DNA of 16,876 nucleotides. Source: a virus. Positions 7,359-11,493 of this stretch are shown in pieces. The notes beneath the pieces were generated by a model. The model was not told the DNA's origin, made no database searches, and saw only the letters and a list, made by a program, of their open reading frames with translations. The translations under genes and the position numbers were made by a program. The first letter of the stretch is position 1; the number at the start of each line of letters is the position of its first letter. The DNA is taken from the IMG/VR virus record IMGVR_UViG_3300009514_000122; one strand, given 5' to 3'.

Positions 7359-7500
7359 AATATATGTTCCAAAGTAAAAGTAAGGTATGGTCTATCCGAC
7401 AAGAAGTTGCGTGGCACCCTCTCAGGGTATTATCCCACATACCATGTTACTAGAACATATATTTTAGAAGCGGGTTACTAGCCCGTTTTTTGGACTTTTC

Positions 7501-7668
7501 TTACCAGTGGTGGGGCTGGTGGCCAGCCTTGGCCCGTTGATTTCTCTCACAAGTTACACAGTAATGCAACCCATGTTCACTGACATATATGAAGTGTCCA
7601 GCCTTCACACAGGTAGTTAAGCTGGTCACCTGTTCAACCAGTTTTTGTTTATCTTTTTCTTTGCTCAT
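7501..7668 (-). CDS. small Cys/His-rich protein, 55 aa (MSKEKDKQKLVEQVTSLTTCVKAGHFIYVSEHGLHYCVTCERNQRAKAGHQPHHW)
   Basis: This ORF was translated by hand. ATG is at 7668 with no SD. Its 3' end contains a GC-rich palindrome. Confidence 0.3.
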   Translation of the reverse strand: MSKEKDKQKLVEQVTSLTTCVKAGHFIYVSEHGLHYCVTCERNQRAKAGHQPHHW

Positions 7669-7680
7669 AACAAAAATAAT

Positions 7681-7733
7681 GGGTGGGGTGTCATCCTAGA
7701 TAGGATTTGTCGGCAGACACAACACCCACACCC
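7681..7733 (-). terminator. candidate terminator hairpin after the exchanger/membrane-protein pair
   Basis: GGGTGGGGTGT (7681-7691) pairs with ACACCCACACCC (7722-7733) with one bulge. On the minus strand it is followed by ATTATTTTTGTT. Confidence 0.3.
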
Positions 7734-7755
7734 ATCACTCCATTGGTAGTAGATT

Positions 7756-7953
7756 CTACTTGGTGATTTCGACTTTCAAACCTTTCTTCTGTTCTGATGT
7801 AAGGATGACTTTGTAACCAAGCCAGTGGTGTTCCCTGGTGAAAACCAGTTTCTTCTGGACACCTGCGAACACCCAAATGGCAAAGCCCCAAAATGATACC
7901 CCACTCAGGAACATGAATAATTTGAAAATGATCCAAAGGGCTGATGTTATCAT
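7756..7953 (-). CDS. small membrane protein, 65 aa (one or two TM segments)
   Basis: ATG at 7953 lies 3 nt after the exchanger stop, with GGAGG 7 nt upstream inside the exchanger 3' end. The overlapping ORF 7691..7936 is rejected. Confidence 0.55.
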   Translation of the reverse strand: MITSALWIIFKLFMFLSGVSFWGFAIWVFAGVQKKLVFTREHHWLGYKVILTSEQKKGLKVEITK

Positions 7954-7956
7954 GGT

Positions 7957-9090
7957 TTAACCTCCAATGATGTTAAGTGTTTTTTGTAAATAAAATCCAA
8001 TGGTGTTTGCCACTGGCGTTTCTGTTGCTCTGCCAATGATGTATAACACGAACCCCGCATATATCAGGAGCATTATATATCCTTTCAGCTTTCCCATTTT
8101 CTCACCTAGAAAGATAAGAAATAAGACTATCGTGATTACCAGTAACAAAACCCTTAGTTCAGCTACCGATCCTTTATCTGCCAGCCCTATGTTGATACTG
8201 TCACCTGTCAAGAGGCAATATATAAACAGGGGTAAACCCAAGCAGATACATATATCAAAAATGTTGGAGCCTAAAGCATTGGCCACCGCATCATCATAGT
8301 TACCCGCCTTTGCATCCTTAATGGAAAGAATTGTATCAGGTACACTGGTGGCACCAGAGGCTAGGATAACGGCCACGAAATAAGTTCGGATACCAAGGGA
8401 GTCACCTAGAGCGTAACAGGATTCTACCAGTATCCAACAGGCCACAGCGATAACACCTGTAGCAACCGCCAGTAACCCCCATGCATTTTTAGTAGTCCTT
8501 TCCTTGTTGCCGATAACGGCAGAAGTCAAATCCAACTTGAGGAAGTTCCCTAGAAACCCGCCCGAACTAGGATTATCATCAACTTCTTCAAATTCTTCTT
8601 CAGATTCGGATTCTCCCATTGTACGGAACATCACCACTATATAGAACAGGTAAAAGAATATCAGGAAAAGACCATGCATCCAAGTTACTTGGCCTTTGGA
8701 TAAGAGAACGATAAGTAAAAATTCAGCACCGATTAAACATAGACCATCCCGCAAAATCACTTTTCTGGAAACCATAATTACGGGAGCTAGTTTGGCAAAT
8801 TGCACTACCATGAGAATTACAAGGCCAGGGATCACCGCACTGTTAAAGACCGCACTTCCCGCCGTAGTTCCGATACCAAAAGCAAACCCTTCTTTGTTGG
8901 CATATATAAGAAGGGCAATGCTGGTGGCTAGGAGTTCTGGCAGAGAACTGCCAATGGCATTTATGGTGGCACCTCTGACTCCATCAGATAGATTTCTACC
9001 GATAAAGCCAGAGGCATCTTCAAAGCCATCACAGGCTCTCCAGATGATTAACATGGAGCCTATGATACCTATCAGAGATAAAACCAACAT
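7957..9090 (-). CDS. Na+/Ca2+ exchanger, CaCA family (YrbG/NCX_Mj-like)
   Basis: The two alpha-repeat signatures GATINAIGSSLPEL and ASGATSVPDT are present. About 10 TM segments sit around an acidic central loop. The track start at 9171 is TTG and overlaps TerD by 77 nt. The in-frame ATG at 9090 lies 4 nt past the TerD stop and aligns with the YrbG N-terminus. Confidence 0.85.
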   Translation of the reverse strand: MLVLSLIGIIGSMLIIWRACDGFEDASGFIGRNLSDGVRGATINAIGSSLPELLATSIALLIYANKEGFAFGIGTTAGSAVFNSAVIPGLVILMVVQFAKLAPVIMVSRKVILRDGLCLIGAEFLLIVLLSKGQVTWMHGLFLIFFYLFYIVVMFRTMGESESEEEFEEVDDNPSSGGFLGNFLKLDLTSAVIGNKERTTKNAWGLLAVATGVIAVACWILVESCYALGDSLGIRTYFVAVILASGATSVPDTILSIKDAKAGNYDDAVANALGSNIFDICICLGLPLFIYCLLTGDSINIGLADKGSVAELRVLLLVITIVLFLIFLGEKMGKLKGYIMLLIYAGFVLYIIGRATETPVANTIGFYLQKTLNIIGG

Positions 9091-9094
9091 GGTT

Positions 9095-9670
9095 TTAATT
9101 ACCCCCAAAGAAACGGCCAATGGCTCTACCGATACCACCGCCAGAATTGCTCTGGCCAGCAGAGTCACCAAACATAGTCTGTTCAGTTACCTGTCCACCA
9201 GTTTCGTTGATGTTAAGAAGTTGGGGTGAGATTCCGTTGTTGTTGAAATGTGCGATAACACACCACGCACCTCTTTCTTCAGAGATCAGAGGAACATCAA
9301 ACTGAGTGTTACCTGCAATAATTTCTACGGCACCGTCATATTGTTTGAAAGGCCCGTTTCCACCATATATGTTAGCAACAATATATACATCACTGAATTC
9401 ATCAAGACTCTGGATAGTCATGTTTTCTTCATTGTCACCAGCAGTACCGCCGATACCTGAATCCTTGTCTAGCTTGATGCCGTCACCACGTTTGTTGCCG
9501 AAATAAATGTGACCAGTTCCACCATTCTTTTTCTTGTAGAAACAGTGAAGGTCTAAATCCACACCCATCTTCCATCTGAGTCTTGCGTGAAGATTTGTGG
9601 CACTCTCAAGCATACCTGCCTGATTCTTGTCTGCCAAAACAATCTTGTTATTTATCTGAGGCTGATTCAT
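9095..9670 (-). CDS. TerD-domain protein (tellurite-resistance/Ca2+-binding TerD family), 191 aa
   Basis: ATG at 9670 has AAGGAGA with an 8-nt spacer. Motifs GVDLDLHCFY, GDNEENM and YDGAVEII match the TerD DLDASAFLL / GDNRTGEGDGDDE / FGQV blocks. Confidence 0.85.
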   Translation of the reverse strand: MNQPQINNKIVLADKNQAGMLESATNLHARLRWKMGVDLDLHCFYKKKNGGTGHIYFGNKRGDGIKLDKDSGIGGTAGDNEENMTIQSLDEFSDVYIVANIYGGNGPFKQYDGAVEIIAGNTQFDVPLISEERGAWCVIAHFNNNGISPQLLNINETGGQVTEQTMFGDSAGQSNSGGGIGRAIGRFFGGN

Positions 9671-9711
9671 TTTTGATTCTCCTTTAAGTGTTGATTTTTT
9701 TTGTGTTAAAA

Positions 9712-9734
9712 ATGGGGGATAAAATATCCCCCAT
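9712..9734 (-). terminator. perfect 9-bp hairpin (ATGGGGGAT-aaaat-ATCCCCCAT) with a T-run on the minus strand, between TerB and TerD
   Basis: It sits about 25 nt after the TerB stop and about 20 nt before the TerD SD. On the minus strand it is followed by TTTTAACACAAAAAAAA. Confidence 0.4.
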
Positions 9735-9758
9735 CAATATATGTTTTTGGAAACGTGT

Positions 9759-10211
9759 TCAGGTGTTTTCGCTGATGAAGGTTTCCAGAGTAGCATCCAT
9801 TCCCATCGCTCTTTCCTTGATTGTGGTAAGGAGTTCTCTTTCGGCATCATCTACCTGTCCGTCACCCTGGATCTTGTCAATGATATACTGGGCTTCGGTT
9901 TCATCAACCACGTTTGGAGTATCATCATCAGCCAGCACGAAATCGGAAATTGCTCTTGCGAACAGCTTTCCCCATGCGGGTGAGTTTTCTTTTCCCGATA
10001 CGGCATCGTTGAGTTCAAAAAGGAAGTCAGCTTCTTCCTTGTCAACTTTGCCATCTTCGTAGACTCTGGCTTCGATTCTCTGGACTTCATCATCATCAAT
10101 GACTCCATCTTCAAGAATCTCTGCTTTGAAATCTTCAAAGGTTTGTGTTGAGTTTTCTTCAGAAGATCCCTGTTCGGAACTTTCTGGTGTCTGGTTTTCT
10201 TCGGTATCCAT
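9759..10211 (-). CDS. TerB-like protein, acidic, 150 aa
   Basis: ATG at 10211 has ACGGAGG with a 7-nt spacer. The repeated EDGVIDDDEVQRIE / EDGKVDKEEADFLFEL / QGDGQVDDAERELL motifs match the TerB DG-x-x-(D/S)-x-E-E helix-pair repeats. Confidence 0.7.
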   Translation of the reverse strand: MDTEENQTPESSEQGSSEENSTQTFEDFKAEILEDGVIDDDEVQRIEARVYEDGKVDKEEADFLFELNDAVSGKENSPAWGKLFARAISDFVLADDDTPNVVDETEAQYIIDKIQGDGQVDDAERELLTTIKERAMGMDATLETFISENT

Positions 10212-10305
10212 TTAGGAACCTCCGTTTTTTTGATGTTATTGGTTCTAGTTTAAAGTTCGGTTTTGGAAAGACCCGAAAACTTTTTTGGCATGAAATTGGT
10301 TAAGA

Positions 10306-10905
10306 TTATTTGGTTAAAGCATCTGCCCCTGGAATATCCTGGACATACTTGGCCAAATCCATGACCTCACTGGAGTTCTGGATGGTGGGCGTGATACCGC
10401 CGTTTTCGATCTTGGCAATCACCGCACCTACACCCATTTCACTGGAGTTCAGCGGAACCTCAAATTCTGATTTTTCATTGTTAGCCATGAAAATGAAATT
10501 GATTTTGGCATCATACTGAGAAAAGGCAACATTGTTGCCGTTCTTGGCTTCAGTGTAGTTCAAGGCACAGATGTATATAGATTCAACCGTTTCGTCAATT
10601 TTGGCGATAACAAGATCCTCTTTGTTATCCCCGCCTTCGGCACCGACACCCGCATCACCGCTGAGTTTCATGAAGGGGAAAGCGTTCAGGTCACCATAGT
10701 TTCCGTTCGGCAGTTCTTCAGAGAAGATTCCCGTAATCCTGCCGTCCTTTTGTTTGATGAAAGCCTGAAGATCGAGATCGACAGCGGATTGCCAACTTAG
10801 GGTCACCTTGGCCTGTTCCACCTTGCTGGCATCAGACAGATCGGGGATGTTAGCATCTGCACCCTTGTCGTTCAGAGTGATTTTATCTTTTATTGCGACA
10901 TTCAT
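10306..10905 (-). CDS. TerD-domain protein, second copy, about 199 aa
   Basis: The track start at 10962 is TTG. The in-frame ATG at 10905 has AGGAG with a 7-nt spacer. Motifs AVDLDLQAFI, GGDNKEDL, ICALNY and YDAKINFI are TerD signatures. Confidence 0.85.
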   Translation of the reverse strand: MNVAIKDKITLNDKGADANIPDLSDASKVEQAKVTLSWQSAVDLDLQAFIKQKDGRITGIFSEELPNGNYGDLNAFPFMKLSGDAGVGAEGGDNKEDLVIAKIDETVESIYICALNYTEAKNGNNVAFSQYDAKINFIFMANNEKSEFEVPLNSSEMGVGAVIAKIENGGITPTIQNSSEVMDLAKYVQDIPGADALTK

Positions 10906-10982
10906 GATGTTGCTCCTTTTGTTTAGGGTTAAAAAATTCGTCTTTCCGAATGTCAGCTTCAAAGATGTATTTAACGAGAGTG

Positions 10983-11132
10983 TTATTTTGAAGCATCAAT
11001 AACATCCCCATTATGTTTGTTTTTATTAATTTCCATAATCTTTACCCTTGTCAAAGTACCCGCCCAATATCCAAGGGTGATAGCAAAAAAAACTAGTGCT
11101 ATAACATATCGAACTGAAATCTCTCCGCACAT
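10983..11132 (-). CDS. small membrane protein, 49 aa (MCGEISVRYVIALVFFAITLGYWAGTLTRVKIMEINKNKHNGDVIDASK)
   Basis: This ORF was translated by hand. ATG at 11132 has AGGAGA with a 4-nt spacer. It has one clear TM helix. Confidence 0.45.
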   Translation of the reverse strand: MCGEISVRYVIALVFFAITLGYWAGTLTRVKIMEINKNKHNGDVIDASK

Positions 11133-11232
11133 GTTATCTCCTATTGAAAAACTTGAACCAAAAACGTAAGTGTATAGGCAATCAGGTTCAAGATAGCCCC
11201 CACCTTTTCTCCCTGCTTTTCAAAGAAACTTT

Positions 11233-11493
11233 TCATCTTACGAAATCTCCTTTAATGATGTTGTCAATTTCATTTTCAATGATTTCTTGATGATATATTT
11301 CCTTGAGCACTTCTTGAAATATACCCACTACTTCTTTTCGGGAATACCCTATTTTAAATAGGATAACCTTTCCATTAACATCATATATTGCTATTTTCTT
11401 CCACGAAAAAAGCCAACCAAACAACGATGCCAGAACTGATTTTAAGTGTGTAATTTCTTTCTTTGTTTTATCAACCATAATGCTATCATCCAT
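11233..11493 (-). CDS. hypothetical protein, 86 aa
   Basis: ATG at 11493 with no clear SD. It is the first gene after the 11494-11671 intergenic region. Confidence 0.5.
   Translation of the reverse strand: MDDSIMVDKTKKEITHLKSVLASLFGWLFSWKKIAIYDVNGKVILFKIGYSRKEVVGIFQEVLKEIYHQEIIENEIDNIIKGDFVR

Follow-up and report, generated by a model that had tools for sequence, protein, structure and literature searches.

A TerD/TerB-like gene set next to a CaCA antiporter gene: a putative Ca2+-handling module on a probable phage contig

Composition of the module

The complete metagenome contig IMGVR_UViG_3300009514_000122 (IMG/VR; 16,876 bp, hereafter the window) carries a gene group in which two divergent TerD-fold proteins and a TerB-like protein are encoded upstream of a cation/Ca2+ antiporter of the CaCA superfamily (the exchanger), followed by an open reading frame (ORF) of 65 amino acids (aa). 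All credible genes of the window are located on the minus strand. An original prediction had read the five genes as a candidate Ca2+-handling operon; their positions were all confirmed from the sequence, each on the minus strand (Table 1).

Table 1 Features of the module and of its surroundings in the window
Feature	Coordinates	Strand	Basis
TerD1, divergent TerD-fold protein, 199 aa	10905..10306	-	TerD2-family hidden Markov model (HMM), hhalign, phrog_5698
TerB-superfamily protein (TerB-like), 150 aa	10211..9759	-	homologs passing Pfam TerB
Terminator-like hairpin GGGGGATATTTTATCCCC with T-rich run, between the TerB-like gene and TerD2	9732..9715	-	consensus scan only
TerD2, divergent TerD-fold protein, 191 aa, Gly-rich C-terminal tail	9670..9095	-	profile-profile and fold comparison
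Exchanger, CaCA-superfamily (YrbG/NCX-like) cation/Ca2+ antiporter, 377 aa	9090..7957	-	Pfam Na_Ca_ex, NCX alignment
65-aa ORF, one N-terminal hydrophobic segment (candidate gene)	7953..7756	-	hydropathy
Major vault protein (MVP) homolog, 867 aa, outside the module	782..3385	-	Pfam MVP_shoulder, 1.3e-21
BCS1_N and AAA ATPase	15044-16396	-	phrog_7485, 8e-81
tRNA-Leu(CAA), between the BCS1-like and NADAR genes	16369-16444	-	
NADAR-domain protein	16452-16868	-	1.2e-48

The predicted assignment of the fourth gene product to the Na+/Ca2+ exchangers holds. The protein matches Pfam Na_Ca_ex (PF01699) in two stretches with an E-value of 4.4e-36 (124.6 bits, cutoff 24.9) and carries the alpha-repeat signatures GSSLPE (residues 47-52) and GATSVPD (246-252) as well as GSNIFD (274-279). 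Its central loop, at about residues 158-200, is acidic. Each alpha-repeat contributes one acidic residue, E52 in GSSLPE and D252 in GATSVPD, and S79, N83, S275 and D279 are present too. Ion binding in NCX_Mj involves 12 positions, which we take to be A47, T50, S51, E54, S77, N81, A206, T209, S210, E213, S236 and D240. This list reportedly goes back to the NCX_Mj structure of Liao et al. 2012. According to an alignment to NCX_Mj and NCX1, the exchanger has A45, S48, S49, E52, S79, N83, S245, T248, S249, D252, S275 and D279 at these positions, nine of them identical and three conservatively changed. The exchanger thus shares two Na_Ca_ex repeats and the conserved ion-coordinating residues with NCX_Mj and YrbG-type exchangers. 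It differs from them in the Asp that replaces the Glu of the second repeat, as in mammalian NCX1 and NCKX, and in being apparently phage-encoded and Ter-linked. Its membership in CaCA is unambiguous at the sequence level. Among the NCBIfam models, the protein matches TIGR00367 (calcium/sodium antiporter) best, and it represents a clade related to YrbG and the calcium/sodium antiporters rather than an equivalog; the predicted YrbG-type label is retained in this wider sense.

The TerD and TerB assignments of the original prediction do not stand at the level of Pfam thresholds (scores are given below) and were rescued by more sensitive comparisons. TerD1 and TerD2 are paralogs, because an HMM built from 13 TerD2 homologs finds TerD1 with an E-value of 1.5e-39. 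When compared with 11 Pfam-positive phage TerDs, the TerD1 family (A8) is matched with a probability of 97.3% (hhalign, E-value 2.1e-11, 133 columns) and the TerD2 family with 96.3% (profile-profile, E-value 1.8e-9). TerD1 also matches phrog_5698 at 1.1e-7. Single-sequence PDB searches with TerD1, TerD2 and the TerB-like protein returned chance matches only, and the TerD2-family profile gave no useful match to PDB sequences, so that a fold comparison was needed for the TerD proteins. The top Foldseek match of the TerD2 model is 9a6r_B, labelled SCP2, which we take to be Bacillus subtilis YceC. Together, the profile-profile and fold comparisons show that both proteins have the TerD beta-sandwich fold.

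Canonical TerD of Klebsiella binds Ca2+ through acidic loops with the motifs DxD and GDN..GDGDDE. These loops align with VDLDL and LDKDSGIGGTAGDNEEN in TerD2 and with SGDAGVG..GGDNKED in TerD1, the motif being altered. D38, D40, D70, G72 and E82 are nearly invariant in the divergent TerD clade and are located where the alignment places the canonical DLD and GDN..GDGDDE loops. TerD1 is acidic (31 D+E versus 17 K+R) and contains the motif LSGDAGVG..GGDNKED. The Klebsiella structure 2kxt is a Ca2+-binding protein according to its title. The divergent clade comprises 757 representatives at 50% clustering, of which Pfam TerD finds 19 in a sample of 136 (at 1e-3). Its members adjoin genes for canonical TerD, vWA-TerF and TerC, and some are fused to vWA-TerF, Copine, HSP70, SAP or TM2 domains. 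TerD2 ends in a disordered, Gly-rich tail (within 9095-9160, minus strand; ...GGGIGRAIGRFFGGN) that is shared only by the ortholog at the related locus L006 (8001-8597; ...SSSRTGFFGGLFR). The two tail-bearing loci are also the two in which an exchanger and a vault homolog occur together, and the tail might be a docking peptide.

The TerB-like protein is very acidic (43 D+E versus 12 K+R) and contains three DG-x-[IV]-D-x-x-E repeats. Two homologs that are 50-52% identical to it, P0024 and P0079, pass the Pfam TerB (PF05099) cutoff of 24.4 with 26.5 and 25.5 bits, and P0079 also passes DUF533. Weak Pfam TerB matches occur in 12 of 16 family members, and the best PDB profile match of the family is the TerB-like structure 2h5n. 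The family, with 404 proteins matched at E <= 0.001, is adjoined by Ter genes (TerD, vWA/TerY, TerC) or a Ca2+-type transporter in every context examined. As judged from these homologs, the protein is shown to belong to the TerB superfamily.

The gene junctions had been described as tight (4 nt and 3 nt). This applies to the last three genes: the TerD2 stop codon TAA is separated from the exchanger ATG by AACC (4 nt), and the exchanger stop codon TAA from the ATG of the small ORF by ACC (3 nt), both read directly from the sequence. The two upstream junctions, by contrast, measure 94 nt (TerD1/TerB-like) and 88 nt (TerB-like/TerD2), the latter including the hairpin. As predicted, the Shine-Dalgarno (SD) motif of the small ORF, GGAGG, lies within the last two codons of the exchanger. 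AGGAG is found 7 nt 5' of the TerD1 ATG, and the start codons of the module are backed by homolog alignments. SD-like motifs precede 13 of the 31 window ORFs, including the vault homolog and all module genes except the exchanger. A promoter scan performed no better than on shuffled sequences. Neither a riboswitch nor any other RNA element was detected in an Rfam scan of the module, including the Mn2+ riboswitch known from TerC genes, and phage records contained no match to the module at the DNA level. The G+C content is 0.42-0.44 in the module (7500-11000) and 0.35-0.38 in the rest of the contig; because it exceeds that of the flanks, it is compatible with acquisition from a genome of higher G+C.

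The 65-aa ORF had been called a membrane protein, for which the hydropathy profile provides one hydrophobic segment. It is an ORFan: homologs were searched and none was found anywhere. Nor is it conserved, related loci having unrelated genes after CaCA. Its status as a gene and as a part of the module is unproven.

Linkage in phages and cellular relatives

The original prediction had proposed a comparison of gene neighborhoods across phage genomes, and this comparison showed the linkage again in isolated marine phages as well as in IMG/VR contigs. All viral loci of the exchanger's CaCA clade with visible upstream DNA were counted (n=13), with genes called by home-made profiles on six-frame ORFs. 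In 13 of 13 loci, TerD-family genes precede the exchanger gene on its own strand, and a TerB-like gene is also present in seven of them. For comparison, 20 viral loci were selected by means of an unrelated gene, and a single one of these controls contains Ter genes (Fisher's exact p = 2.4e-8). Given these counts, the adjacency is far from chance. The CaCA proteins of the linked viral loci share only 33-58% identity, for which reason the TerD-CaCA linkage is old. In several related loci, stop and start codons closely adjoin or overlap. The idea that unrelated auxiliary genes became neighbors by coincidence has in its favor the two upstream junctions of about 90 nt, one with a hairpin; it is extremely improbable in view of these overlapping codons and of the conservation in 13 of 13 loci at identities that exclude one recent lineage.

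In a protein search of phage records, 38 isolated marine phages were found to encode a member of the exchanger clade. In Pseudoalteromonas phage J2-1, Pfam-positive TerD genes are located on the exchanger's strand, a few genes before it. In Vibrio phages D69, D93 and 1.084.O, such TerD genes are found directly upstream, with one gene of about 150 aa in between. This intervening gene of 139-153 aa (L003 4425-4886, L002 4440-4859, L125 5399-5854) forms a small family of its own (BLASTP 1.5e-10 and 7e-4) with no Pfam match; judging by its size, its position and its acidic helices, the product may be another TerB-like protein. Besides the 13 loci, two more isolated phages show a linkage, one with three TerD genes and the other with a canonical TerB instead. 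In the Vibrio phage D505 type (L126, about 78 kb), a canonical TerB gene (5446-5874) is located directly upstream of the exchanger, and no TerD gene is present within 6 kb. The encoded TerB shares 42% identity with that of L006, which is Pfam-positive and whose gene comes after the exchanger. As a side observation, a potassium-channel-type protein (Ion_trans_2, 2.5e-9) is encoded two genes downstream of the exchanger in Vibrio phage D69 (L002 6363-7010), so that a K+ channel and a Ca2+-type exchanger are combined with three TerD genes at this locus.

Phage transporters of this clade have been listed before. Greiner et al. 2018 report phage 'sodium/calcium symporters', including those of Vibrio phage 1.084.O and Pseudoalteromonas phage J2-1, which are 36-37% identical to the window exchanger. 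In the passages available to us these transporters are listed without genomic context and the terms TerD and TerC are absent, whereas both phages have upstream TerD genes in the present analysis. In the accessible part of a report on Jug gut jumbo phages (Sci Adv 2026), TerD operons and a Ca2+-translocating P-type ATPase are described, i.e. a transporter family different from CaCA; TerD is treated there as a stress gene and the ATPase separately, with no functional link drawn. Searches of the literature for TerD in combination with exchanger, antiporter, transporter or calcium yielded no description of a Ter-CaCA linkage; an earlier mention in a 2012 comparative study of Ter systems is possible.

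Cellular homologs of the exchanger number at least 569, mostly from marine Bacteroidota and with 44-55% identity. A TerD gene is located within 8 kb in 12 of the 80 best of them. A Tenacibaculum contig encodes the operon TerD, TerD, TerD, vWA, TerB-like, vWA, small ORF, TerY (vWA and TerY_C), PP2C phosphatase, kinase and CaCA, and further CaCA-containing Ter operons occur among the contexts of TerB-like homologs. These operons of Tenacibaculum and other marine Bacteroidota, which belong to the TerY-P triad type (TerD, vWA TerY, PP2C and kinase), share the TerB-like family, the TerD genes and, as the last gene, the same CaCA clade with the window. In line with the original prediction, the window set lacks TerC, TerA and TerY partners: no TerC-like protein was found among the window proteins, and vWA, TerY_C, PP2C phosphatase and kinase, all present in the cellular relatives, are missing from the window. 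Because the cellular relatives carry TerY partners, the phage form appears to be a reduction of a larger system to a stripped-down core, not a separate invention.

The same TerD and TerB-like genes also occur with other transporters. Some TerB-like genes are located beside a P-type ATPase with Cation_ATPase_N/C domains. One such TerB-like protein, P0115 (125 aa, contigs L127-L129), is extremely abundant (585 index blocks) and 56% identical to that of the window. Its cluster, all on one strand, also encodes two divergent TerD proteins, a membrane protein of the Bax1-I (BI-1) family and a P-type ATPase of 996 aa that contains the DKTGT motif. On another phage-like contig, the pair of divergent TerD and TerB-like genes precedes TerC, for which reason CaCA seems to take the place of TerC in the window module. 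This exchange also distinguishes the module from terZABCDEF, known from IncHI2 plasmids and from islands of E. coli O157. Both combine several TerD paralogs, a TerB-type protein and one integral membrane protein, and both have a tie to phage biology, terZABCDEF being a tellurite-resistance and phage-inhibition operon. The membrane protein of the window is, however, a CaCA antiporter instead of TerC, its TerD and TerB proteins belong to divergent clades mostly missed by Pfam, and a TerA/TerZ/TerF-type vWA protein is absent. In Bacillus subtilis yceCDEFGH (three TerD-family genes, the TerC-family gene yceF and a TelA-like gene), TerD paralogs are likewise co-transcribed with a divalent-cation exporter, which belongs to the TerC family there and to CaCA in the window.

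The vault homolog, a relative of the eukaryotic major vault protein, is located 4.4 kb downstream of the module. Its counterpart in L006 is 40% identical over 860 aa and is encoded within the operon itself, after TerD2 and before CaCA, with stop and start codons that overlap. In the viral locus L103, an MVP homolog lies 1.2 kb from a trio of divergent TerD, TerB-like and divergent TerD genes. A role as a core part was rejected, since neither Ter nor CaCA genes are found near MVP in 19 of the 20 other viral loci that encode it or in two huge phages. The vault homolog may be an accessory of the module and, more speculatively and by analogy, may stand in for the TelA of yceCDEFGH.

Proposed function and alternative readings

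With moderate confidence, the module is interpreted as a reduced phage-borne stress module of the Ter type that probably uses a Na+/Ca2+-type CaCA antiporter as its membrane component instead of TerC. Its activity would be a TerD/TerB-assisted extrusion of Ca2+, and the gene content suggests that phages adjust host Ca2+ during infection. Expressed in the infected cell, the exchanger would insert into the inner membrane, where the inward Na+ gradient could drive the extrusion of Ca2+ leaking in at the perturbed envelope. Such Na+-driven extrusion would be effective in sea water, the habitat of all isolated carriers. The soluble TerD and TerB-like proteins would bind cytoplasmic Ca2+, either as a buffer, as a sensor or for delivery to the exchanger, which is the function commonly proposed for TerD and TerB beside TerC. 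The phage would benefit from a stable low-Ca2+ cytoplasm for replication, and possibly from a weakening of rival phages or of a host suicide response triggered by ions. The predicted direction toward Ca2+ handling gains support from the recurrent CaCA linkage and from the occurrence of the same TerB-like/TerD set beside an unrelated P-type cation ATPase. Ca2+ is favored over other metals because two unrelated Ca2+-type transporter families appear to have been recruited to the same TerD/TerB-like partners.

Several observations weigh against this interpretation. TerD1 reaches 16.9 bits with Pfam TerD (PF02342; cutoff 25.3) and TerD2 has no Pfam match. The TerB-like protein is below threshold as well, its sole Pfam match being DUF533 (17.3 versus 29.6), and its fold search was non-specific and uninformative. 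The exchanger remains below the YrbG-type equivalog cutoffs (TIGR00367, 126.1 versus 179.65 bits; NF008005, 58 versus 432), for which reason its predicted substrate specificity is not assured; members of CaCA can carry other cations. Since a TerD gene within 8 kb is lacking for 68 of the 80 closest cellular homologs, the exchanger does not appear to need Ter partners. The module may furthermore consist of two transcription units, because the terminator-like hairpin separates TerD1/TerB-like from TerD2-CaCA. Finally, no capsid, tail, terminase or other structural gene was found among the proteins of the window.

The classical ter operons (terZABCDEF) are associated with phage inhibition and with the Phi and PacB phenotypes. 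The module could accordingly serve inter-phage conflict, protecting the infected cell from other phages or from colicins by altering envelope or periplasmic ions against rival entry. The parts of such a superinfection exclusion overlap those of Ca2+ extrusion and the purpose differs. A jumbo-phage review discusses phage Ter genes as anti-superinfection tools, and the location of the module among early-type small ORFs, away from structural genes, would agree with this use. Nothing in the sequence points to exclusion, and exclusion alone does not explain why the conserved partner is always a Ca2+-type transporter. This purpose is regarded as unlikely.

Proteins of the TerC family export Mn2+. 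By analogy, the ion handled by TerD and TerB could be Mn2+ or another divalent cation, as CaCA occupies the position of TerC and the exchanger falls short of the equivalog cutoffs. The ion-site residues of the exchanger, however, match those of Na+/Ca2+ exchangers, the alternative partner is a Cation_ATPase_N/C P-type ATPase, a type called Ca2+-translocating in phages, and Klebsiella TerD was solved as a Ca2+-binding protein. Another metal is thus improbable.

The module could also be an ordinary cellular Ter operon variant on a fragment of a bacterial island or plasmid. The lack of capsid, tail and terminase genes in 16.9 kb, the absence of the contig from the results of an IMG/VR scan and the related operons in cellular genomes speak for this origin, which is nonetheless clearly improbable: the window has matches to phrog_7485 (8e-81), phrog_1017, phrog_9437 and phrog_5698, a tRNA-Leu gene and a one-strand array with many ORFans, and it lacks housekeeping genes as well as the TerY, PP2C and kinase genes of the cellular versions. 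The BCS1-like AAA protein is 36% identical to that of the Tenacibaculum jumbo phage pT24, and the closest syntenic locus belongs to a contig of 136 kb that also encodes a dCMP deaminase and a ribonucleotide reductase with an intein. The predicted viral location of the module is thus retained as probable. A Bacteroidota host was considered from the best cellular matches and left open; it is not assumed because SD-like motifs precede the vault homolog and all module genes but the exchanger, and most well-supported genes have strong SD motifs.

Two regions next to the module contain further small ORFs. A 55-aa ORF just downstream (7501-7668, minus strand) has a high content of Cys (C20, C37 and C40) and of His (several residues). 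It has no family match and could encode a small zinc-binding protein. In the 327-nt gap upstream of TerD1 (10906-11240, minus strand), two short ORFs (about 31 and 49 aa) that include hydrophobic stretches were noted by eye.

Significance for Ter systems

The function of Ter proteins is a decades-old puzzle, although they are widespread and tied to phage resistance and virulence plasmids. The present analysis provides, as a by-product, a TerD-fold clade (757 representatives) and a TerB-like family (404 proteins) that are largely missed by current Pfam models. The Ter-type interpretation with Ca2+ extrusion can be extended to a doubtful, quite speculative proposal: TerD/TerB-type proteins would be dedicated cytoplasmic partners of Ca2+ exporters, and the minimal core in phages would curb the Ca2+ rise that triggers abortive responses. 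The vault homolog would join as a sub-membrane or shell component in the window, L006 and L103, and the GRFFGG tail of TerD2 might dock on it. If true, dedicated partners of Ca2+ exporters would settle what Ter systems sense.

The linkage of Ter genes to an exchanger joins recent evidence of phage manipulation of host Ca2+. The module offers a minimal four-gene system for probing Ter function, and several of its carriers are culturable marine phages, in which the proposed interpretation, a well-founded hypothesis, is directly testable. The same TerD/TerB-like set, wired to two unrelated Ca2+-type transporter families in bacteria and phages, constitutes strong comparative evidence for Ca2+ as the physiological ligand.

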